This document shows positions 9,025 through 38,562 of a stretch of 41,656 nucleotides of DNA, in pieces. The DNA lies in the IMG/VR virus record IMGVR_UViG_3300035542_000178, positions 1-41,656 of that record; one strand, written 5' to 3'. The notes beneath the pieces are model-generated. The model worked only from the letters and a program-made list of their open reading frames with translations, was not told the origin of the DNA and searched no databases. Positions within the stretch are counted from its first letter, which is position 1. Each line of letters opens with the position of its first letter. Both the position numbers and the translations under genes were made by a program. Source of the DNA: a virus. Taxonomy: Duplodnaviria > Caudoviricetes.

Positions 9025-9975
9025 TTATAGTGTTGTAATAAGATCGTTGCAAAGTTTTGCGGCGCTGTCGGTGTGGCCTGCCTGGTTAATAATATCGAGC
9101 GTATTTTGTTTACCGGTGCCAATAGCTGTGCCGGTTCCTCCGATAGCCATTTCGGTTATATTACTCCATGCTTTGCTTGTGCTTTGGTCATATGGTGCTG
9201 CTTCGTAATACGTTGTGCCATCAATATAAAATATTAATCCACCAGCAGGGCCAACATCGCGTAAAGCATATGCGCCCGCATTGGCTGTAAATGAACGGCA
9301 AGCGCGGACATGATAAGTTCCATATTTAAAATTTAGATATGCCTCTCCAGTTCCCATATAAACCCCAAGAGATGCGTTAGGCGTACTTTCAGTAGAACTC
9401 CAATAGTAATAAGCATTATCCAAACCACCAACCCCTTCGGCATGCAAATTATCATACATAGCTTGCAACTCATCTATTGATGGCAAAAACCAGTCGGCAG
9501 CAGAACTATTTTGTGCTATTACAGCCGCTGTGATTGCTTTACCGGCAGCTTCAAAAACTATTTTGCGGCCGTTTGCATCGGCGGGAGTTTCGCCGGTGGT
9601 ATATTTATCGGTAAATCGTAGCGGGTTTTGTTGTGTGCCGGCTACCCAGGTGCGGTTTTGGCGGTCTTCGAACAGCAATACAAAGGTATTGCCATCCATT
9701 TGGGTAATATCTTGTATTTGTTCCAGGTCGTTGCCCGATAAAAACAACTCTATTTGGTTATTATAATAAGCTACTTTACTAATTTTAACCGCCGATTTTA
9801 CGTCTGCATTATCGCGGGTAAAAGGTATTTTAGTATAATCGGCACCCGATTTAAGGGTAATGCTTTGCAGCTCGCCGGCAATAATATCGCCAAAAGATAA
9901 TATATCGGTTGCTTTTACTATGTATATATTATACAGTCCGGCAAAAACTTCTTGTATGTGGGTTAGGTTGTTCAT
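9025..9975 (-). CDS. Tail-tube-like domain fused to DUF1566-like C-type lectin domain
   Basis: Likely start ATG 9975 overlapping the upstream TGA; DWFLPSIDEL, YWSSTE, VRACRSF, GPAGGLIFY motifs. Confidence 0.75.
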   Translation of the reverse strand: MNNLTHIQEVFAGLYNIYIVKATDILSFGDIIAGELQSITLKSGADYTKIPFTRDNADVKSAVKISKVAYYNNQIELFLSGNDLEQIQDITQMDGNTFVLLFEDRQNRTWVAGTQQNPLRFTDKYTTGETPADANGRKIVFEAAGKAITAAVIAQNSSAADWFLPSIDELQAMYDNLHAEGVGGLDNAYYYWSSTESTPNASLGVYMGTGEAYLNFKYGTYHVRACRSFTANAGAYALRDVGPAGGLIFYIDGTTYYEAAPYDQSTSKAWSNITEMAIGGTGTAIGTGKQNTLDIINQAGHTDSAAKLCNDLITTL

Positions 9976-10088
9976 AATACCTCTATTTCTAAATCGTTGC
10001 AAAGTTTTGCGGCGCTGTCTGTGTGGCCTGCCTGGTTAATAATATCGAGCGTATTTTGTTTTCCGGTGCCAATAGCGGTGCCAGTTCC
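9043..10088. repeat. 96-bp direct repeat shared by the 3' ends of two paralogues (9043-9138 and 9993-10088)
   Basis: Manual alignment gives 92/96 identical, offset 950 bp. Confidence 0.9.
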
Positions 10089-10946
10089 AACCAAAGAGCT
10101 TGTAATATTACTCCAAAAATATCCATAGCTAAGATAATCCGGTGAGTGTTCATAATATGTTGTACCATCGATATAAAATATTAATCCACCAGCAGGACCA
10201 ACATCACGTAAACTATAAGCTCCTTCCTCTGCTGTGAAGGTGCGACAAGCTCTAATTCTCATCCTATCATCAGATTTTTGACCACTAGTTCCAAAACCGC
10301 CAGTACTCATACTAAACATATAATATGCTTGATTAGCATTAACCTCTGATGATGTCCAATGGTATCCGCCTCCTAAATTACCCACTCCCTCTAAATATAA
10401 ATTAGTTCTCATTATACTTAATTCATCTTTACTCGGTAAAAACCAATCATTATATATAACAATTACTTTTATCTTTTCGCCACCGGCTGCAGAAAAAACG
10501 CGGGTAAGGCTGTCGGCATAAAACTGCATGTTTATGCCCTGGTTGTCGGCGCCGTTTTTGCCGGTACCTATATTGTAGGTAAAGTTTAGCGGGTTGTCTG
10601 CTGTTCCGGCAACTTTATACAGCCCGTTGTTGTCTTTGTAAGCAATTACAAACCGGGTGCCTTTCATTTCTTCGAGCTGCGAAAGTACATCAACAGATAA
10701 CCCGGGATAAAAAAGGCTAAAACTGCGCTCGAAAATAATACCGCCTTTGGTTTCTTTTTTATTTTCGGCAAATTGCTTGCTCGAAAAAACACCATACACA
10801 CTTAACCACGATTTGCCCGATTTTAACTCTAATCCCTGCAGCTCGCCCAGTATTATATCGCCAAAAGAAGCGATATCGTTAACCGGAATAAACCAAAACT
10901 GGTTAACTCCGCCCATGCTGTTTTGTGGTTTGGGAAAGTTTTTCAT
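9972..10946 (-). CDS. Tail-tube-like domain fused to DUF1566-like C-type lectin domain (paralogue of 9025-9975)
   Basis: NSMGG..., FVIAYKDNNGLYKVAGT; DWFLPSKDEL, HWTSSE, IRACRTF, GPAGGLIFY. Confidence 0.75.
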   Translation of the reverse strand: MKNFPKPQNSMGGVNQFWFIPVNDIASFGDIILGELQGLELKSGKSWLSVYGVFSSKQFAENKKETKGGIIFERSFSLFYPGLSVDVLSQLEEMKGTRFVIAYKDNNGLYKVAGTADNPLNFTYNIGTGKNGADNQGINMQFYADSLTRVFSAAGGEKIKVIVIYNDWFLPSKDELSIMRTNLYLEGVGNLGGGYHWTSSEVNANQAYYMFSMSTGGFGTSGQKSDDRMRIRACRTFTAEEGAYSLRDVGPAGGLIFYIDGTTYYEHSPDYLSYGYFWSNITSSLVGTGTAIGTGKQNTLDIINQAGHTDSAAKLCNDLEIEVL

Positions 10947-12475: not shown

Positions 12476-13279
12476 TTAAACCGGCAGCGGAATTGTAGAA
12501 AGCAGGTTATTGCTTACGTGCGTGTAAATTTCGGTTGTTTTGCTCGATTTGTGGCCGGCTAATTTTTGTATAATTCGTAAATCCACACCTTTTTCTAACA
12601 AATGTGTAAAACAAGAATGCCTTAAAGTGTGAAAGTGAAAATTGCTGCCGATATATTTTTTCACCAGCTTATTACAGCTTTTGGCAGAGTATTGCAAACT
12701 ATCCTGTCCGTTAAAAAGGTACACCTTTGGTTTATAGGCTTTATAATATTGCCTTAAAAGTGTAAGCACCTTTTCGGATAAAGGCACTACGCGGTCTTTT
12801 CTGCCTTTAGCCTGGTAAATTGTAATTATCATCCGTTGACTGTCAATATCATTAATTTTAAGGTTAACAATTTCCGACACGCGCAACCCTACCGAGTAGG
12901 CTAATGATATAATACACTTATGTTTTAAGTTGTTTATTTTTTCGATGGCATGAATAATAACATCATAATCGATTACTTTAGGTATTCGTTTTTCTTTCCT
13001 TGGGCGGTCGAACGAAACCTTATCATATTTTTTATTCAGCGCATACCTGTATAAAAAGCGTATGGCATTAATAATTTGGTTTTGTTGACTAACCGACGAG
13101 AAAGAAAAGTTATCCAGGTAGTCCTGAAAATCTTTCGCCGAAAGATGCACTACCTGTTTGTGTTGGTTCTGCTCCAAAAATTTTTGGATGTAATGCAAAT
13201 ATATTTCCACTGTGCGCTCGGCATAGTTTAAATATATAAGCTTTTGTTTGCAAATCTTTATAATTTTTTCGTTTAACAT
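12476..13279 (-). CDS. Tyrosine recombinase, integron-integrase-like but lacking the IntI insertion
   Basis: 267 aa; SAM-like N-domain (NYAERTVEIY..., SQQNQIINAIRFLY); catalytic GLRVSE, KGRKDR, HTLRHS, AGH, IYTHV. Confidence 0.9.
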   Translation of the reverse strand: MLNEKIIKICKQKLIYLNYAERTVEIYLHYIQKFLEQNQHKQVVHLSAKDFQDYLDNFSFSSVSQQNQIINAIRFLYRYALNKKYDKVSFDRPRKEKRIPKVIDYDVIIHAIEKINNLKHKCIISLAYSVGLRVSEIVNLKINDIDSQRMIITIYQAKGRKDRVVPLSEKVLTLLRQYYKAYKPKVYLFNGQDSLQYSAKSCNKLVKKYIGSNFHFHTLRHSCFTHLLEKGVDLRIIQKLAGHKSSKTTEIYTHVSNNLLSTIPLPV

Positions 13280-13307
13280 GGTGTATATTAGTTTATTGAT
13301 TGTGTTG

Positions 13308-13330
13308 GTTTATATATAGTAGTTATATAC
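13308..13330 (+). other. Putative attI-like site (first GTT at 13322-13324)
   Basis: Only array GTT with no preceding hairpin and no C before it (TAGTAGTT); 43 bp upstream of the integrase start. Confidence 0.55.
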
Positions 13331-13425
13331 AAGTGGCTTGCTGTTTATAGTTTCGACCATTTTGCCGACGTCGGGAATATGGTTAATCACAATAAACGCT
13401 ATACCTCACAAGCCACCAGATATAT

Positions 13426-13707
13426 AACAATGTGTATAAATAATAAAATTACTCAACTACTTCCCTTTCAGAAACACCCCACGCACTCATACTATCAAAA
13501 GTCCAGTCAATATCATCCTCATCTTTGTAGAGTTCTTCAAACTCCTTACGTTTCTGCTCTTTGTGAAATTCCATTGCCATTTCTGCACCCTTGCGTGTTC
13601 TGTGCAAACTCATACAAGCAGCCGCACTTTCGTAAATGCAGTCGTTATACCAAAATTCATATACTTTTTCCATATCCGTAATTTTACTATTCATACACTC
13701 GTCCGTT
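13426..13707 (+). repeat. attC-like site 1 (gene inside loop)
   Basis: Arms gtgtataaataataaaattac / gtaattttactattcatacac. Confidence 0.8.
13449..13673 (-). CDS. Hypothetical cassette protein (74 aa)
   Basis: Probable ATG 13673 in context AAAATTACGGATATG; stop lies in the hairpin arm. Confidence 0.7.
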   Translation of the reverse strand: MEKVYEFWYNDCIYESAAACMSLHRTRKGAEMAMEFHKEQKRKEFEELYKDEDDIDWTFDSMSAWGVSEREVVE

Positions 13708-13717
13708 AGCAACAAGG

Positions 13718-13972
13718 CTAAAAGACATCGACCCAAACATTTCGATTTGGATATTTTATCTTCATTTCGTTGCATAACTTTTCAGCATCCGATTTACGTT
13801 TAAATGTTTTTGCGTTTTCTTTTACTAATGTTCTTCCAGGGTCACCATTCCAATCGGCAATCCAACAATCATGATTAGCTTGAACTTTAATACAATAAAG
13901 CCCAGTTGCTAACACAGTGTCAACCGCAATAGCGGATTCTGTGGTTTGCGAAGTATTCTGCTCTTTGTTCAT
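13718..13972 (-). CDS. Hypothetical cassette protein
   Basis: 84 aa; starts in the loop of site 2 and reads through the arm and core. Confidence 0.7.
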   Translation of the reverse strand: MNKEQNTSQTTESAIAVDTVLATGLYCIKVQANHDCWIADWNGDPGRTLVKENAKTFKRKSDAEKLCNEMKIKYPNRNVWVDVF

Positions 13973-14034
13973 ATTCGTTTATTTTGATAAGTTATTACTA
14001 TTTAATCCGCTACATGCGGTTACACTCAATCGTT
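13911..14034 (+). repeat. attC-like site 2
   Basis: Arms agtgt(c)aaccgcaatagcggatt / aatccgctacatgcggttacact. Confidence 0.85.
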
Positions 14035-14048
14035 AGGCACAATAAAAA

Positions 14049-14252
14049 TTACTTAGTGTCTGCCACTAATGAACTGTCGTGATATTCTGGGATAGTATTC
14101 CATTCCCATTTTTCACCAGTTAATATCTTTCCTTCTTTGGTATCTATTATCAATTTTATTACTCCTACACTATGTAATTGTAGGTAAGTTGTATTTAATC
14201 CAATTTGTTGAACTATTTGTCCGTTATTAAATAAAATAATGTATCGTTTCAT
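14049..14252 (-). CDS. Hypothetical cassette protein
   Basis: 67 aa; same AAAATTACGGATATG start context as 13673. Confidence 0.7.
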   Translation of the reverse strand: MKRYIILFNNGQIVQQIGLNTTYLQLHSVGVIKLIIDTKEGKILTGEKWEWNTIPEYHDSSLVADTK

Positions 14253-14275
14253 ATCCGTAATTTTTACAGATGCCT

Positions 14276-14389
14276 AACAGCAAATCATAAAACATGGCTG
14301 TCGTGCATCTAATTAATATTTATGTTAATTTCAAATTCATATCTTTGTTGTGGCTTTTCGTTTGCCACGTTTCATATTTGCGTACCGTT
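14276..14389 (+). repeat. attC-like site 3
   Basis: Arms gcaaat(c)ataaaacatggc / gccacgtttcatatttgc. Confidence 0.8.
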
Positions 14390-14475
14390 GTACGCAAGCG
14401 GGTGAAGTGCTTCGATTTTAGTTTTCTGCCAATTTGAAAGAAAAATAAAAAATGCCCCGCCCGCTTCTGTTTTTT

Positions 14476-15327
14476 TCAAAACAGTTTGAGTTGGCGTTTG
14501 TACATATCAAATCTTTGTAGTCCATTATCAAAGTATTCGTTATCAATTTCACAAATATCTAATTCAAATCCTTCCATATCACACGCTATTGCCAAACTCA
14601 TGCTGCCTCCATTTGTATCTATTATTTTCATGCCTTTGGTTGCATACTTCTGTAAAATGTATCTATAGAGCATAACAGGTTTTTGCGTTGGGTGAATCCG
14701 TTCCTCGTTAAGTTGTTTATTCCCTTGTTGTATAATTGCTTTCATTACATCTTTTCCGCAATAAACACCTTGTATCATTCCAGCCCAGCGAAAAAACACA
14801 TTTTCAACTCTTTCAAACATCGAACAATAAGCAATTTCACAATCAGAAAACGAAACGCCTTCTGGTACTAATTTATTCCATATCAACCTGCCACCTTTTA
14901 ACTGAAAATCCATATAATTTATGCCAAAAATTATTTGATGCTTACTTACTCTTTGGAGTTCGGTTAGCCATTCAATTCCTGCAGGTTCTTTATCCCAATC
15001 ACCATGTTTATATTTTTTCTTTTTAACATGAAGTGTGCTACCGTTTTTTTGTTTGCATGGTCTATTGTCTTCTTGCGTATAAGCCATTTTTGCAACATTA
15101 ATTCCATAAGGCGGGTCAACTATTGCAAGGTCGTAATACTTATCGGGTTTAGTTTTCATAAACTCAATATTATCACATAAATAAAAATTAATTTCCCCAC
15201 GCTTCGCATTTTTTATTTTTTGTGCTTCGTTGGTAGGTTCGTGCGAACAATCCGCCAGCGTACAACATGCAGTATATTCCATGCCTTGCTGTATCTGTTC
15301 TTGATGCTTATTTTCTCGTTCAATCAT
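14476..15327 (-). CDS. DNA N6-adenine/N4-cytosine methyltransferase (beta class), cassette-borne
   Basis: DLAIVDPPYG catalytic motif, HPTQKPV, SAM-binding IIDTNGGS. Confidence 0.9.
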   Translation of the reverse strand: MIERENKHQEQIQQGMEYTACCTLADCSHEPTNEAQKIKNAKRGEINFYLCDNIEFMKTKPDKYYDLAIVDPPYGINVAKMAYTQEDNRPCKQKNGSTLHVKKKKYKHGDWDKEPAGIEWLTELQRVSKHQIIFGINYMDFQLKGGRLIWNKLVPEGVSFSDCEIAYCSMFERVENVFFRWAGMIQGVYCGKDVMKAIIQQGNKQLNEERIHPTQKPVMLYRYILQKYATKGMKIIDTNGGSMSLAIACDMEGFELDICEIDNEYFDNGLQRFDMYKRQLKLF

Positions 15328-15386
15328 TATCGTAAATTTGAAAGTTAATCACTCGTATTTCGGCACGTAACATACTGCCGTTCGTT
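15264..15386 (+). repeat. attC-like site 4
   Basis: Arms gcagtatattccatgcc / ggcacgtaacatactgc. Confidence 0.8.
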
Positions 15387-15621
15387 AGGCAACATTTAAT
15401 CCAACCAACCAATTTGCCGAAAATCGGTATAGTATAGTTCCGTCGTCGCCTGTAATTACAAAGTTTTTCCCGCCATCAACTGCAAATATTTCAGTTTCGG
15501 CAAATGGCATATCGTTGTAAGTGCTTTTGTATTTTATAAATGCCCTGCTATTTTCAGTCCTTAGTTCTTTTAGCCAAAGTATATTGCCATTATTATCTAC
15601 TGGTATCATTGCTATTTTCAT
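15385..15621 (-). CDS. Hypothetical cassette protein
   Basis: ATG 15621 (track starts at TTG 15639); stop TAA supplied by the GTTA core. Confidence 0.65.
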   Translation of the reverse strand: MKIAMIPVDNNGNILWLKELRTENSRAFIKYKSTYNDMPFAETEIFAVDGGKNFVITGDDGTILYRFSANWLVGLNVA

Positions 15622-15634
15622 AAAAACGTTGCCT

Positions 15635-15749
15635 AACAAAGTGTATAAGCAATAGCTGTTAGGCGTTTAAACTATTGCAGTTGTTAATATTTAAGTTTCT
15701 ACTTCTAATCAAGTTTTGTGTTCGGCTACTGCTCATACACCCAACCGTT
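15635..15749 (+). repeat. attC-like site 5
   Basis: Arms gtgtataagcaatagctg / cggctactgctcatacac. Confidence 0.85.
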
Positions 15750-15858
15750 ACCATGCATTTTGCGCTTGATATTTTAAATCAATCCGAAAGGCACGTAAGC
15801 GCAAAACGTACCCTTCGGCATGGTAACAATTTGTAAATTGCATGGCTGTTTAGTGCAA

Positions 15859-16077
15859 TCAATCAACATCATCGGTTTGCGCCGTTTTGTTTTCCCCGCC
15901 CGCTTCGTCTGCTATCGCAGCCGTTTGGATTTCAGTTTGCCAATCTTCTATATGCCTAACAAGGCTGTTTATTTCAGCCTCATATTTTTGCGGAATCCTG
16001 TTTTTCCGTATATTCATTCGAGAACCGGAAAGGAGCCGTGAAAGCTCCCCCCAGTTAATTAAATCTTGTGCGCTCAT
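15859..16077 (-). CDS. Small putative DNA-binding protein
   Basis: 72 aa; LINWGELSRLLSG HTH-like start; coupled to the upstream ORF. Confidence 0.6.
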   Translation of the reverse strand: MSAQDLINWGELSRLLSGSRMNIRKNRIPQKYEAEINSLVRHIEDWQTEIQTAAIADEAGGENKTAQTDDVD

Positions 16078-16274
16078 TATTCTGCTACAATTATAAATCC
16101 ATACTCTTCTTCATAATCATGTGCGCCATGTTCGCCTGTGAAACATCTTTCACCTTCTCCAACTACTTCAATAGCTACATCGCCATTCATTCCACCTTTA
16201 TGAAAATCTAAATCTACGTCAACTACTTTTTCGTTGTAAAGCTCTTCGTTTGTAATTTTTACTGAGTAAGTCAT
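16077..16274 (-). CDS. Hypothetical acidic protein
   Basis: 65 aa downstream of a consensus promoter. Confidence 0.65.
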   Translation of the reverse strand: MTYSVKITNEELYNEKVVDVDLDFHKGGMNGDVAIEVVGEGERCFTGEHGAHDYEEEYGFIIVAE

Positions 16275-16316
16275 GATTTCTTTGTTTTAATTGTTATTAC
16301 TTAAATTTCTATACGT

Positions 16317-16378
16317 CAAATATACCACATTTGTGGTTAACGCACAAATGTTTTGTAAATTATTTTCCACATTTGTGG
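16317..16378 (-). promoter_or_regulatory. Bacteroidota promoter (TTTG-N20-TATATTTG) with two CCACA-TT-TGTGG operator-like palindromes
   Basis: -7 box 16317-16324, -33 box 16345-16348; palindromes at 16325-16336 and 16367-16378. Confidence 0.75.
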
Positions 16379-16554
16379 TTATTTGTATAGAATCTAAATA
16401 ATCCATCCCTCAAAAAACAAAACTATGATAGTACTATTAATCAACGACAGTGCGACTTTCACGCCACGACAACTTACAAGTTATCGTTATGCTTCATTGC
16501 GCCTGAAATTATACCACATTTAAAATACTTTCCGTCAGGCGCAACGAAAAGCAT

Positions 16555-17303
16555 AACATGTGGTATAATGCAAAGCTGGTCAGTATTTCAAATCAACGTT
16601 TCTGCGTGTGCGATGAAATAAAAAACCCCACCGCACTTCCAGTTTTTCAAACTGGTTTAGGTTCTGGCGTAGCTCACAAACTCGTCACCTCTATCGCATA
16701 ATTCTTTTATCATCGAACAAACTAATCCAAATGACATTCCGCTGTGTCCCTGCTCCTCAATTATTCCTTTGGCTTTGTCAAGCTCACAATCATTATTAAG
16801 CTCTTTAATTATATCAAGTGAAGCACCTAATTCAAATCCCTTGTATAAATCTCGTAGTCTTATTGGAACAATTTTATTCCATAATTCAAGGTATTTCTCA
16901 TCAAGGATGTTTTTACCTTTTGCAATCCATTCTTTGGTTAGTTCTGGAATTGCTTCTTCGTGCCTTTTGTTTTCAGCTTCGTATTCTTCCCGTCTTTTGC
17001 GTTCAGCTTCATCAAATTCAGCTTTTGTTTTGCCAGTAATTTTCTTAAATGCTGAATCCATATCATCAATATCGGAGTACAGCATTTTTCCATTAAAAGA
17101 GCCACAAACTAAGTCTTTATGTTCCTTCAATTCTTTTACAGCAGATTCAATACTTTGTCCTGCACTAAATTCAATTTCTCTATAATTCTTTTTCATAGTG
17201 TAAATATTTAAGTTTAAAAATTCCTTCCCTTCTGTTTTTTATTTTGTGCTTCGTATCAATGGCAGTGCGTATTTCACGCTTCGACATCATACCACTGTCC
17301 GTT
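16555..17303 (+). repeat. attC-like site 7 (gene inside loop)
   Basis: Arms gtggtataatgcaaagc / gcttcgacatcataccac. Confidence 0.75.
16657..17196 (-). CDS. Hypothetical cassette protein (QGHSGMSF motif)
   Basis: 179 aa ORF with typical composition. Confidence 0.8.
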   Translation of the reverse strand: MKKNYREIEFSAGQSIESAVKELKEHKDLVCGSFNGKMLYSDIDDMDSAFKKITGKTKAEFDEAERKRREEYEAENKRHEEAIPELTKEWIAKGKNILDEKYLELWNKIVPIRLRDLYKGFELGASLDIIKELNNDCELDKAKGIIEEQGHSGMSFGLVCSMIKELCDRGDEFVSYART

Positions 17304-17335
17304 GTGGTGCATTAAAACGTTCGCTTCGCCACCAC

Positions 17336-17421
17336 AACATTGTATATAGTTAATGCGCCAAGTTAGGTCGGTGCTTAATTCAATCATTTGTGGTAGGCGC
17401 ACTAACCATATACCTACCGTT
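17336..17421 (+). repeat. attC-like site 8
   Basis: Arms gtatatagttaatgcgcc / ggcgcactaaccatatac. Confidence 0.88.
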
Positions 17422-17629
17422 AGCGCACATTTTGACGAAGAGACCTCTGAACACTCAACTTCTCAATCCGATGAGTATCGTCCTCGTATTTCGTACGCTT
17501 CAACCTCGAAAAATGGTATTCAAGTTTCGAGTAGGTGAACCCTGTTAGCTCTTGCAAAACAGGAATACTCCCTGCTATTGCGGGAGTATCCGTTTGCTTG
17601 TTTAAGTACCAGTACATTGTTATTTGCAT
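17420..17629 (-). CDS. Small hypothetical, possibly DNA-binding protein
   Basis: 69 aa; SIPVLQELTGFTYSKLEYHF HTH-like; stop supplied by the GTTA core. Confidence 0.65.
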   Translation of the reverse strand: MQITMYWYLNKQTDTPAIAGSIPVLQELTGFTYSKLEYHFSRLKRTKYEDDTHRIEKLSVQRSLRQNVR

Positions 17630-17814
17630 ATTTCTGGGTACAACTCTTCAACAGGTGCTTGATGTGAATTTTGAACATTTAACATCTTTACATTTGATGC
17701 CTTTACATTTGAATCAAGTTGCTGGAATCTTGCTACTGCATTTGCTTTTTTGTAAGCTTTTACTTGAGTGAAAGTTCCGTTAACTTCTGCTGAGAAAACC
17801 TTTGCCTTTTTCAT
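17620..17814 (-). CDS. Small basic hypothetical protein
   Basis: 64 aa downstream of a consensus promoter. Confidence 0.65.
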   Translation of the reverse strand: MKKAKVFSAEVNGTFTQVKAYKKANAVARFQQLDSNVKASNVKMLNVQNSHQAPVEELYPEICK

Positions 17815-17857
17815 TGTCGTAGTGTATTAGTGAATGATTAATTAAATTTGTACACTA

Positions 17858-17889
17858 CAAATATAGTGTGTTATTTCGTATAATCCAAA
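17858..17889 (-). promoter_or_regulatory. Bacteroidota promoter TTTG-N20-TATATTTG
   Basis: -7 box 17858-17865, -33 box 17886-17889. Confidence 0.7.
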
Positions 17890-17963
17890 TATTTTTGCAA
17901 TTATTTTACGATTATTTTCATTTATTTCGTAATTTAAAGTAATTCTAAATAAAAACGTGCGCT

Positions 17964-18087
17964 AACACAGGGTTAAGCTCATTGCCTTTCTGCTCATTGG
18001 ATACATTCTCGGTACTCATAACTTTTTAATTTTATGGTTAATATTCAGTTTGTGGAGGTCGGCAACGAAGCCCAACCCCCAGCCGTT
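17964..18087 (+). repeat. attC-like site 9
   Basis: Arms gggttaagctcattgcc / ggcaacgaagcccaaccc. Confidence 0.8.
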
Positions 18088-18099
18088 AAGCTCAATAAT

Positions 18100-23815: not shown

Positions 23816-23886
23816 AGATTGCATATAGTAAGCCAATGAACATTAAATTTAAGAACGATTATAAACAAAACAAACATGTTATATAA

Positions 23887-24243
23887 CAGTATTTAAAATA
23901 TCCACGTGTACATTGGTGTGTGCCGCTAACTAAACCGGCATTGCGTTTAATTAAAGATGCCAACCCGCTGCGCTCGCATGGGGTTATTTTTAGTTGTTAC
24001 TGCGACCAGGTTACCAACCGACTGCTAAAAAAAATTACCGATAGTGTAAGCATTTATAAAAAGGTAACTACGCATAGTGCACGACATACTTTTGCTACGC
24101 TGTTTTTAAGCAAAACAAAAAATCTGGCTGCGCTGCAAAAGCTGCTGGGGCATACAAATATAAGCGAGACCATGACTTATGCACATATCCTTACCGAAGA
24201 TATTAAAGACGAGATGGATGTTTTTAATGGGTTTGAAATATAA
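23887..24243 (+). pseudogene. C-terminal fragment of a tyrosine integrase
   Basis: THSARHTFAT, LLGH, TMTYAH present; first catalytic Arg/Lys and N-domains absent; in-frame TAA at 23884-23886. Confidence 0.8.
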
Positions 24244-35441: not shown

Positions 35442-35759
35442 TTAGTTTTTAAACTGATTAACAATTTCCGATACTTTTGCCCGGGTTTCTTCGGTTGGAT
35501 TGTAATTTTTTTCTATATTAATAGGATCCTGCCCATTTACCTGAATGCCAAATGCCACTTTTTGTTCCAACTCTGGGTCGCAGAAATGGCGGGTTAATGC
35601 TCTTTCCATATCGTCCATCGATTTTAAGATGGTCATTTCAGCTTCGTAAACAATGCCTTCGTCGGTTGTTTCTTCGCTTTGATTAAAGTAAATAATAAGC
35701 TGGCCTTTTTTCCAGCTTTCTGGAACTGCAGGAAACGGAGTTGTGCTTTGTACTTTCAT
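35442..35759 (-). CDS. Hypothetical protein
   Basis: 105 aa coupled to the upstream ORF. Confidence 0.65.
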   Translation of the reverse strand: MKVQSTTPFPAVPESWKKGQLIIYFNQSEETTDEGIVYEAEMTILKSMDDMERALTRHFCDPELEQKVAFGIQVNGQDPINIEKNYNPTEETRAKVSEIVNQFKN

Positions 35760-36061
35760 GAGAATGTAAATTTTTTATCGTTTTTCTTAATAACTGTTTC
35801 AAACGGAAATTTATCTTCCGGCACTTTTTTAATAATCTCCATTAAATTATCGGATCCGGTAAAAGCAATCCTGTTTTCATTATTATAAACTATAGCTAAT
35901 GTAAGCCTGTTGTTGCTTTTGTTTTTTCCTGTATATTTACTTTTTTCAATTTTATATGCCTTTACGATAATCGGTATATTAAAAAGGTCTGAGAAATTAA
36001 TTTTTTTCCCGTCGAAAATGTCGGACCCGGTATCAATATTAAAATCAGAAAACCTGTTCAT
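35756..36061 (-). CDS. Small protein coupled to DGR RT (candidate accessory factor)
   Basis: ATG 36061 overlaps the RT stop (ATGA); 101 aa, beta-rich, FTGS and FPFETVI motifs. Confidence 0.7.
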   Translation of the reverse strand: MNRFSDFNIDTGSDIFDGKKINFSDLFNIPIIVKAYKIEKSKYTGKNKSNNRLTLAIVYNNENRIAFTGSDNLMEIIKKVPEDKFPFETVIKKNDKKFTFS

Positions 36062-37041
36062 GCGCTTATCTTTTTTAAAAGGTTGTTGCTGTTTACAAAA
36101 TCGTGAATTATCCACCCTGTATATGCTGCCATTTGCATTTTATATGTTTTATTATCGGCATTGCGTTTTCTCAGGCGGCTGCTTTTTCGCATCATATTTT
36201 TCTTTATGTTTTTGCGCACAAGGGTGTGGGTGTGATAAAACTTATATCCCACAAAATCGACACCGCGTTTACTTACAGGAAATACCTGGTAATTGCTTTT
36301 TACTTCGAGCTGCAAATTATCGTTTAAATATTGCCGTATGTCGTTTAGTAAACTGTGTAAATAGGGTTTGTTTGGAGCAAATATTACCATGTCATCGCAA
36401 TAGCGAAAATAATGTTTAACGCCTTTAGCTTCTTTTATCCAGTGGTCGAAATAAGTTAAGTAAAGATTGGCGGCATATTGCGAAATATAGTTACCAATAG
36501 GAACGCCGCTTTTAACCGAATAAACAATATCATTTAATAATGCGAGTGTTTTTTTACACTTTATTTTGCGCTCGATGATTTGCATTAAGATATCCTGGCT
36601 AATAGACGGGTAAAACTTTTTAATATCGAGCTTTAAGCAATATTGCGTATCCTGCTTATTTTGTAGAGCTTTTACCACTTTTCGGGCGGCGCCATGTATC
36701 CCGCGGTTTTTTATACAAGAGTAAGAATCGGCTGTAAAAACATTCATCCATATGCTTTCTAACTGAAGCATTACAGCCCAGTGAACAATTCTGTCGGGAT
36801 AATAAGGCAGGCAATATATTTCGCGCTCTTTGGGTTTAAATATTTTAAACACTTTATACCGGCTTGTTTTGTAGTTTCCTGATTTTAAAAGCTCATGTAA
36901 ACGGATAATATTCGATTCGCGATTTTTATCGTGCAGCCTTACGCCGTAAGTGTTTTTTTTGCCCTTACGCGCCATCTCATCGGCAATCATTAAATTGTCG
37001 ATTGATATTATTTTTTCGAATATGTTGTTTACTCTTTTCAT
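36058..37041 (-). CDS. DGR reverse transcriptase
   Basis: 327 aa; PYYPDRIVH, LKLDIKKFYPSI, GVPIGNYISQ (DGR-type SQ), YFRYCDDMV, GVDFVGY. Confidence 0.95.
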   Translation of the reverse strand: MKRVNNIFEKIISIDNLMIADEMARKGKKNTYGVRLHDKNRESNIIRLHELLKSGNYKTSRYKVFKIFKPKEREIYCLPYYPDRIVHWAVMLQLESIWMNVFTADSYSCIKNRGIHGAARKVVKALQNKQDTQYCLKLDIKKFYPSISQDILMQIIERKIKCKKTLALLNDIVYSVKSGVPIGNYISQYAANLYLTYFDHWIKEAKGVKHYFRYCDDMVIFAPNKPYLHSLLNDIRQYLNDNLQLEVKSNYQVFPVSKRGVDFVGYKFYHTHTLVRKNIKKNMMRKSSRLRKRNADNKTYKMQMAAYTGWIIHDFVNSNNLLKKISA

Positions 37042-37110
37042 TCTATCTGCAATTTCAAAGCAAAGCGTTCATTTTACAATTACTAACATCGCCTGTTTAA
37101 TTGTTATTTT

Positions 37111-37124
37111 TTGCCCAGTGGCAA
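37111..37124 (-). other. Hairpin in TR-RT spacer
   Basis: TTGCC-ACTG-GGCAA on the minus strand just 3' of the TR. Confidence 0.55.
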
Positions 37125-37135
37125 GGCCTATGAGT

Positions 37136-37195
37136 TTTAATTTTGCTTAGCTGCGCCCCGATATTCGCATTACCACCGCGAAGAACGGCACGCTA
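37136..37195 (-). repeat. DGR template repeat (60 bp, internally deleted)
   Basis: Aligns to both ends of the VR; every mismatch is at a TR adenine. Confidence 0.9.
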
Positions 37196-37245
37196 ACTCA
37201 TACAACCTATATTTTAAAGAACATTTTTTCCGGCCCGATCTCGAT

Positions 37246-38562
37246 TTACGGAATATAGCAGAGCCGCGCCCCGACAATCGCAGACGTATTCGACGCCGAG
37301 AAATACGAGTACAGGCAAGCGAACCCCGCATACGAGCTATGATACGCAGAACCACCGCGAAGAACGGCACGCCAGCCAGAGCCTAAGCCTGGTGTATAAA
37401 AATAGTCGCAGAAATATGTTACACTATTACCGGCAGCTACTTTAGGTGTTATAATTCCATAGTTATCGTGATGAGCATATTGCAAATAACCGTTGCTTGT
37501 TGGCAGTTCGCTTCGTTTAGTGTAATTATTTTCCGTTCCGTCATCAAAATTAGCAGGTGTTTCGCAGGTGTAAAAGTCAGATGTTTCTGCTCCATGATTA
37601 ACAGAAGCACCATCGCACCATTCCCAAATGTCGCCAAATGGATTTTCAACACCTCGGTACCTGTTTACTTTTACTACTTCGTCAACTCCTGCACCGCCAA
37701 AATTGTTAATTGTATAATCCGTTTCGCCACTATTGTTTCCTAAATTGTTCGATGAACCACAAGGAACAAGCGGATAATAACTATTAAAGTTACTCCAATC
37801 GGCACTGGCAACGGTTGTTGTTCCGTTACCCAAACCACCTTGTTTATACCCTTCGGCTGTAAGTTCTGCAACAACTGCCTTTTGAGAGTTAAGCGTTGCA
37901 AATTCAATAAAAAACAACTCATATAATAACATCGAGTGTTTCCATGTTATTACATTCCAGTTGTATTCGCCGCTTACTATATTTCGTGCAAAACTTCTAA
38001 AATCAATTAACGAAGTGCTTGTTGCGGGCTTGCCTAATTGCGTTGCATCTGTTCCATCCAGCGTATCGTCGTTATTGCCGCCGCGGTATTCGGCATCGGT
38101 ATTTTGTACACTCCATAATTTTGTGGTACCGGTGCGGTTTACTGCTGCTTTAAAAGCGCCTACATAAAATTTGTTAATTCTTTGATATCCTGCTAAAGGA
38201 TAAGCAGAGATTTTGTGCTTATAAACTCCGGCAGAAGGATTTTCAACCCTACGGTAATAGGTAGGAATTTCAATCATTACGTTGCCGTCGGCACCGGTTA
38301 GGTTACTGGCAGTGCCATCGGCTTTTTTTGTCCAGTCGTCGGGGCTTAAATAATAATTAACCGAACCGTTAGGCAGTAATAAGCACGCTTTTATTTTTTC
38401 GTGAACCGGCAAGCTGGCGTGCAATGTCATATCGCTTGCAATTCTTTCCATATCTGGAGAAGAGTTACTTTCGTCGATAGTAACGCCGTACCAGGAGTTG
38501 GGGAGAGCGGAGAACATCCCCGGCGCTAAAGGTTTCAATCTGCGATTAAACTGGTTGCGCAT
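37246..38562 (-). CDS. DGR target protein with C-terminal C-type lectin fold (putative receptor-binding fibre)
   Basis: YRGVENPFGDIWEWCDG and VLRGGS...GARLC; carries the VR at its 3' end. Confidence 0.88.
   Translation of the reverse strand: MRNQFNRRLKPLAPGMFSALPNSWYGVTIDESNSSPDMERIASDMTLHASLPVHEKIKACLLLPNGSVNYYLSPDDWTKKADGTASNLTGADGNVMIEIPTYYRRVENPSAGVYKHKISAYPLAGYQRINKFYVGAFKAAVNRTGTTKLWSVQNTDAEYRGGNNDDTLDGTDATQLGKPATSTSLIDFRSFARNIVSGEYNWNVITWKHSMLLYELFFIEFATLNSQKAVVAELTAEGYKQGGLGNGTTTVASADWSNFNSYYPLVPCGSSNNLGNNSGETDYTINNFGGAGVDEVVKVNRYRGVENPFGDIWEWCDGASVNHGAETSDFYTCETPANFDDGTENNYTKRSELPTSNGYLQYAHHDNYGIITPKVAAGNSVTYFCDYFYTPGLGSGWRAVLRGGSAYHSSYAGFACLYSYFSASNTSAIVGARLCYIP
37249..37374 (-). 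repeat. DGR variable repeat (126 bp)
   Basis: Last 42 codons of the target gene; homologous to the TR. Confidence 0.9.

Follow-up and report, generated by a model that had tools for sequence, protein, structure and literature searches.

The virus record IMGVR_UViG_3300035542_000178, analysed here over its whole length of 41,656 bp (the window; estimated to be 95% complete), carries a tyrosine recombinase and, upstream of it, an array of nine cassette-like units, the array being placed between the primase gene and a DnaA-type helix-turn-helix gene. Each unit is bordered by GTT cores and holds a site with paired arms that runs from AAC to GTT. Arrays of this kind stand beside homologous recombinases in other phages and in bacterial chromosomes, and the enzyme lacks the I2-bearing insertion of the integron integrase IntI. 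In our reading, in which we place considerable though not full confidence, this IntI-related recombinase would recognise the AAC…GTT site by its folded bottom strand and thereby excise and insert cassettes at the GTT core.

Cassette units and their borders

A preliminary description of the window, generated by a model from the letters and their open reading frames (ORFs), had listed ten GTT coordinates and nine unit lengths, all of which are exact, and the nine sites indeed open with AACA and close with CGTT in every case. A blind scan of both strands of the whole window returned the same nine AAC…GTT paired-arm sites and two isolated matches elsewhere, while 100 dinucleotide shuffles of the array, which give the chance expectation for such sites, yielded a mean of 0.06 and a maximum of 1. 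Each unit consists of a body (A, from GTT to AAC) and a site (B, from AAC to GTT), and the core that opens a unit is reciprocal to that unit's own AAC core, as had been described, with 8-10 complementary nt vs 3-6 nt for the cores of other units; the exception to this specificity is the pair of units 3 and 5, which are not adjacent and have the same 8-nt core. The cargo ORFs all lie on the minus strand, like the recombinase, and are antisense to the sites, and the interiors of B1, B6 and B7 (276, 658 and 743 nt) enclose whole genes. The array as first described thus stands in its sites and cores and is amended by the antisense cargo, by the three sites with genes in the hairpin loop and by the re-pairing of parts at the AAC core described below.

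Sequence comparison supports the view of a cassette capture and shuffling system, since whole units bounded by GTT cores move between phages. Comparing related phages, as had been proposed, reveals both the transfer of such units and changes in their order. Two loci hold the same cassettes in a different order (L053 and L057), three have a common docking site followed by different first cassettes (L007, L008 and L010), and one carries an identical 388-bp cassette twice, in the first position and internally (L018). A phage with a recombinase fragment 68% identical to that of the window (L167) contains window units 2 (98.6%) and 5 (99.5%) among other neighbours, and unit 4 recurs at 99.8% identity in L212 and L213, also among other neighbours; the borders of units 2, 4 and 5 that are shared with other phages fall at GTT cores. 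All ten pairs of shared bodies (>=100 nt, that is, at least 100 nt, at an identity of at least 95%) also have the same following site, and the mobile unit is therefore a body together with the site behind it. The reverse registration, in which a site and the following body would form the unit, is ruled out by the same ten pairs. Regarding the proposed exchange at G^TT, the crossover does fall within the (C)GTT core, the exact base not being placed by sequence comparison.

The best-matching sequencing runs are oil-field metagenomes, and 8 of the 24 listed runs, numbered with an X, were compared as contigs rather than reads. In X2, where the recombinase is covered without differences, position 13321 is joined to 15384, which takes the docking site straight to unit 5; further joints run from 14029 to 15382 in X3 and from 13703 to 15383 in X7, and both X2 and X3 join 17298 to 17417, skipping unit 8 at the GTT core. 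Six of the ten joint rows lie at cores. Unit 5 appears as a whole-unit contig in X2, X4 and X6, and in X5 and X7 unit 3 is likewise complete on contigs whose ends fall at GTT cores. The recombinase is uncovered in X6, X7 and X11, yet single units occur there as contigs ending at cores, so that other genomes must hold those units.

Along the plus strand of the window, the array begins at an attI-like docking site (13310..13324) composed of a TATATA box, 5 nt and GTT, the GTT at 13322 being the start of unit 1. Unit 1 (13322..13704) combines a reusable body A1 of 107 bp (13322-13428) with site B1 (13426-13707), whose loop holds a minus-strand gene of 74-81 aa ending at 13449. Unit 2 (13705..14031) has its body at 13705-13913 and its site at 13911-14034, and its 84-aa ORF (13718-13972, minus strand) starts within the site and reads over the AAC core. 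Unit 3 (14032..14386; body 14032-14278, site 14276-14389) contains a 67-aa ORF (14049-14252, minus). Unit 4 (14387..15383; site 15264-15386) carries an orphan N6/N4 DNA methyltransferase ORF (14476-15327, minus), and unit 5 (15384..15746; site 15635-15749) an ORF of at most 84 aa (15385-15639, minus). In unit 6 (15747..16485) an 81-bp body precedes a site (15825-16488) with two loop genes (15859-16077 and 16077-16274, minus), and in unit 7 (16486..17300) a 72-bp body precedes a site (16555-17303) whose loop contains a 179-aa gene (16657-17196, minus). Unit 8 (17301..17418; 118 bp) is an empty cassette without a cargo gene, made of the near-invariant 38-bp carrier body A8 (17301-17338) and an 80-nt standard site, B8 (17336-17421). 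Unit 9 (17419..18084; site 17964-18087) has minus-strand genes at 17420-17629 and 17620-17814. The last GTT closes the array (18085..18099, plus strand), 15 bp from the stop of the primase gene (18100), and is likely to be the other half of the original docking site.

Bodies and sites also change partners. The 276-nt B1 lies behind A1 in the window and behind A8, 100% identical, in L167, and it follows A8 in 7 of the 8 runs (as joints in X4, X5, X6 and X11, as loose ends in X1, X2 and X7). In X11 body A3 is followed by a different site arm, A8 has many different sites behind it across the 46 loci compared, A1 recurs with other sites in 2 of 4 loci, and many bodies are followed by the standard site B8. 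These changes of partner show that bodies and sites are joined at AAC as well, either during the creation of cassettes or by a rarer crossover, the data favouring neither. For the A8-to-B1 join of X1, contigs do not discriminate between a circle, a tandem copy and a different phage. Derivation of the window from a 3,910-bp circle entering an A1+B8 cassette was also considered and is unneeded, since A1 itself serves as a carrier in L217 and L218 and B8 is one of the standard sites; a joint of A1 with B8 did not appear.

In 193 of 356 family units the gene is contained entirely in the body; in 130 it begins within the site and runs across AAC, and in 22 the loop encloses it entirely. Two further features of the bodies are worth recording. 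A1 contains a strong internal palindrome (13355-13381) and no gene, and near-identical copies of it occur in L217 and L218, while a 10-nt loop motif (17310-17319) is present in 14 of 15 minimal bodies and 42 of 51 minimal sites and may bear on the creation of cassettes.

The recombinase and its association with arrays

The recombinase (267 aa, 12476..13279, minus strand) comprises a SAM-like and a catalytic domain, with intact catalytic residues (R133, K158, H217, R220, H243 and Y252) that are invariant among 104 homologs. It scores below the IntI cut-offs (161 vs 265 bits for TIGR02249, 96 vs 435 for PRK15417) as well as those for XerA (175 vs 220 bits), XerD (152 vs 330) and XerC (141 vs 335). 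About 48 residues of the IntI insertion are missing: residues 179-214 align across 181-264 of the VchIntIA structure (PDB 2A3V), and the spacing from the catalytic lysine to HxxRH is 58-60 aa in the family vs 106-107 in IntI. An alignment-based structure model (predicted local distance difference test, pLDDT, of 89.7) has VchIntIA as its best fold match and XerA as the next; a single-sequence model was discarded at a pLDDT of 41. A quick tree of 79 rows (20 phage, 20 chromosomal, 22 IntI and 17 XerC/D, with no archaeal XerA) separates the family and IntI from XerC/D with a support of 100 and gives IntI its own clade with a support of 99. The description of the enzyme as an IntI relative without I2 therefore fits better than the label 'Xer-type'. 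Since it falls below the IntI cut-off and the sites fail the canonical attC geometry, standard integron models probably miss the system, as the preliminary description had expected.

The association of recombinase and array extends well beyond the window. In a survey of viral loci (the best 80 of 200 homolog loci, some of them near-duplicates), a TATATA-rich box followed by GTT lies directly upstream of the recombinase, and the sequence past this GTT is variable. The finder placed 338 sites in the array orientation within 400 kb upstream of the recombinase, compared with 7 on the opposite strand and with 11 within 551 kb downstream. Recombinases unlinked to arrays would have spoken against the system as first described; 60 of the 61 viral loci with at least 1 kb upstream bear sites, on the expected strand. 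Chromosomal loci (the best 80 of 552) display the opposite layout, with 120 sites downstream on the strand of the gene in 281 kb vs 9, 7 and 5 in the other slots, and the orientation of the cargo is likewise opposite, antisense in phages (274 vs 3 units) and sense in chromosomes (65 vs 1). A family member was found in 108 of 301 sampled Bacteroidota genomes at E <= 1e-80, the enzyme being counted rather than arrays. The system, first described as phage-borne, is thus present in phages and is not restricted to them.

The enzyme beside the arrays could in principle be a passenger, the cassettes being moved by another agent (a family member encoded by the host, XerC/D or IntI) or by short-homology recombination. 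The cores share 4-10 letters and hosts commonly encode a family member, as counted above; moreover, two arrays lie in Polaribacter phage P12002L (L170, 29190-32800 and 37215-41000), both preceded by copies of one start sequence, with several methyltransferase cassettes and without a family recombinase, which means that the enzyme can be absent. Docking site and array are nevertheless fixed beside the recombinase gene in the 60 of 61 loci, the enzyme is intact, and IntI1 failed to recombine attC1 of P12002L, a site of this family, in the experiments reported in PMC9892861. We therefore regard an independent mover as rather improbable, and the catalysis of cassette movement by the neighbouring recombinase is what the sequences point to. 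Body A8 is also the first cassette of a recombinase that is more distant, at 35% identity (L163, 3115-3885), and one cassette pool therefore serves divergent enzymes.

Site geometry and the proposed folded-strand route

The 177 core-confirmed phage sites have an unbulged stem with 2-4 extra bases on the GTT side. At position 15 after AAC, an A·C on the top strand, which is a T·G wobble on the bottom strand, is found in 166 of the 177 phage sites and in 37 of 43 chromosomal ones, and positions that the finder does not score are paired as well, position 4 in 167 of 177 (with four pair types) and position 20 in 142 of 177. G·T wobbles are biased to the bottom strand, by 294 vs 12 on the top strand in phages and by 69 vs 8 in chromosomes. 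A bulge-tolerant finder placed a bulge in 3 of 89 sites. The canonical attC geometry (AAC-5-L'' with bulge … L'-6-GTT), which 8 control attC sites beside true IntI passed, was found in no site of the window array and in none within 270 kb of family arrays.

These strand counts bear on whether the hairpins might work as RNA, that is, as terminators or processing signals, with the mosaic produced by ordinary recombination among phages at repeats between genes. It favours this view that the strand which folds better coincides with the mRNA strand in phages; in chromosomes the mRNA is the top strand (65 vs 1) and the wobble bias nonetheless stays on the bottom strand, and this bias in both layouts points to folded DNA rather than RNA. 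RNA signals would also leave the reciprocal cores unexplained, and the sites have no Rfam match at gathering level, the search having returned a single weak match below the gathering score. This explanation is hardly credible.

According to the mechanism we propose, an excised unit would be circular and its bottom strand would fold into a dumbbell, with the body arms at one end, then the AAC/GTT core, a lopsided internal loop and the site arms, and either loop could hold a gene because the unit folds with two ends. The enzyme would exchange one strand between the folded stem and the docking site, which is double-stranded, and the resulting junction would be resolved through replication; this one-strand exchange with replicative resolution is inferred by analogy with the biology of integrons and CTXphi (PMC4792948, PMC8946536). 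The lopsided loop (about 3 vs 6 unpaired bases) and the T·G wobble may take over the roles of I2 and the extrahelical bases, selecting the strand and blocking a second exchange. New pairings of bodies with sites would come from a less frequent exchange at the AAC core. The antisense cargo might be read from the leftward replication-gene transcript of the phage or from internal promoters, and on this proposal new cassettes would land at the far end of that transcript.

The same enzyme might instead act on double-stranded cores (box, 5 nt and GTT) by two exchanges, the pairing of the arms being a by-product of the way cassettes are made. Such a route is compatible with the missing I2 insertion, the lack of bulges and the re-pairing that occurs on the AAC side; when the opposite strand is read, the AAC junction shows the box-5 nt-GTT geometry of the docking site, and IntI itself retains this mode for attI x attI (PMC4792948). 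It leaves unexplained why pairing persists over 40-900 nt although the letters change, why the wobble is strand-specific in both layouts and why arrays are one-directional (338 vs 7), whereas a cassette duplicated at the docking site fits replicative resolution. We consider the double-stranded route unlikely and retain recognition of the folded bottom strand as the probable one.

Several observations weigh against recognition of the folded strand by this enzyme, in addition to the arrays of P12002L. Isolated sites fold weakly, and in sites 3, 4 and 5 the arm hairpin is not the minimum-energy fold; among 10 folds of 6 sites, it is the minimum-energy fold with z < -2 for site 2 only. The position-15 wobble appears in the ungapped register in only 5 of the 8 window sites displayed, and the site finders are biased to unbulged stems, this window having served for their design. 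In the population data, the X3 joint from 14029 to 15382 has 10 shared letters, 3 of the 10 joint rows lie inside units (with shared arms and other interiors), 1 of 10 is at a core on one side only, and no free circle was seen in the contigs of the 8 runs. The tree is a quick one that carries a long-branch warning, the catalytic role of the enzyme is a prediction from sequences and contigs, and a cargo gene of known function is present in only 1 of the 9 units.

Cargo, phage context and relation to known systems

Besides the DNA methyltransferase of unit 4, which was also the only named match of the cargo in a PADLOC search, the other nine cargo ORFs are without a named function, and an Atlas search with the gene of B1 gave matches that were all under 0.9. 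Scans for sigma-70 promoters and for terminators were at chance level. A Bacteroidota-type promoter motif has two matches in the array, in the loop of unit 6 (16317-16348) and in unit 9 (17858-17889); they are weak, as the window contains 4 matches vs 3.5 expected. Cellulophaga phage Ingeline, the closest match among cultured phages, shares the order of primase, small genes and recombinase, with a site, body A8 is identical in Nonlabens phage P12024L, and the chromosomal homologs of the recombinase are mostly from Bacteroidota, which together suggest a Bacteroidota host. A primase-based search for close relatives of the phage found none.

Three other loci of the window are recorded for completeness. 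A likely diversity-generating retroelement (35756-38562) consists of a reverse transcriptase (36058-37041) with an adjoining small gene, and its template-like repeats at about 37139-37193 match the end of a tail gene. Beside a CI-like repressor gene lies what remains of another tyrosine recombinase, interrupted by an internal stop (23821-24192), and two tandem paralogous genes (9025-10946) have a common C-terminal part and, in one case, a weak Lcl-type match.

The I2 insertion has been described as essential for integron function (PMC8138268), and Escudero (2016) speculated about an I2-less, possibly viral, integron ancestor (PMC4792948). An enzyme that groups with IntI, lacks I2 and comes with hundreds of natural substrates opens this idea to a bench test. 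The origin of cassettes is called unknown in PMC4889954, and the invariant carrier bodies and standard sites that join many partners at AAC bear on how cassettes are made. An IntegronFinder survey of Elizabethkingia found no integrons (PMC11523902), while the enzyme is encoded in about one third of the sampled genomes of the same phylum. In phages, the system would allow a fast trade of accessory genes such as methyltransferases. What the window itself adds are joints from populations of the same phage, the direct re-pairing at AAC of a gene-bearing site and, as a determinant open to testing, the position-15 wobble.

On plasmids pHH1107 and p29FS20-1 (L214, 3956-6100; L215, 3956-5977), an N-terminally short family recombinase (tpnF/xerD) lies before tet(X3)/tet(X5), and a palindrome plus GTT resembling the chromosomal docking site directly precedes the resistance gene; in L214 a site-like left arm without a partner arm follows the tet(X) gene. 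The system may therefore be a source of resistance genes. Tentatively, we suggest that Bacteroidota and their phages share a phylum-wide sister lineage of integrons, which uses the lopsided loop and the T·G wobble, in place of I2 and extrahelical bases, to recombine folded single-stranded cassettes; that the two-ended dumbbell, loadable in either loop and re-paired at AAC, is a route to new cassettes; that the pre-I2 state that gave rise to integrons has been preserved in this lineage; and that the tet(X3) unit of Acinetobacter plasmids represents a fragment captured from it. Taken jointly, these parts are somewhat more likely to fail at some point than to hold together.

A literature search, mostly outside subscription journals, found no description of this recombinase and cassette family. 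Its enzymes may already be grouped in the integron-like subgroup of PMC8138268, for which that paper calls the insertion 'not fully conserved'. The closest account is that of phage-borne clusters of attC lacking integrase (CALINs), among them those of Polaribacter phage P12002L (Qi et al., 2023, PMC9892861; here and below as far as its accessible text goes). The P12002L arrays belong to the site family of the window and likewise have methyltransferase cassettes; the published attC1 is a family site of the 43-nt type read in reverse, and attC2 ends at the first GTT of the array. In that work IntI1 did not recombine attC1 and did recombine attC2, and HattCI called one family site, in reverse. 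Unlike here, the sites were taken as ordinary attC lacking an integrase, and the accessible text has no family recombinase, docking site or site geometry.

CTXphi, which uses XerC/D, resembles the proposed system in its folded single-stranded site without extrahelical bases and in its I2-less enzyme (PMC4792948); it differs in borrowing the host XerC/D to place a whole phage into dif, whereas the window has a dedicated enzyme and many small cassettes. With XerA, XerC and XerD the recombinase shares its size, the SAM-like and catalytic domains and a short catalytic loop, but it scores below all curated cut-offs, lies outside the XerC/D clade and is tied to cassette arrays rather than to dif, for which no search was made.

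The closest likeness is to integrons (IntI, attI and attC, with VchIntIA and the sedentary chromosomal integrons as references): a recombinase beside a docking site, GTT-bounded cassettes with their own reciprocal cores that are mobile as units, AAC…GTT paired arms with a bottom-strand bias, insertion in the first position with duplication, the best fold match, and an enzyme that groups with IntI vs XerC/D. Unlike integrons, the window family has no I2-bearing insertion and a left-arm bulge in only 3 of 89 sites, its sites have 2-4 extra nt on the GTT side and the conserved position-15 wobble, and genes lie within the hairpin loop in 22 of 356 units. The phage cargo is antisense (274 vs 3), unlike cassette genes read from a Pc promoter at attI, and no Pc was identified; cassette orientation in chromosomal members is integron-like (65 vs 1), with the recombinase of the latter upstream of the sites and co-oriented with them. 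The system appears to function like an integron and departs from one in three defining features, the IntI cut-off, I2 and attC geometry, and, in phages, in the orientation of its cargo.

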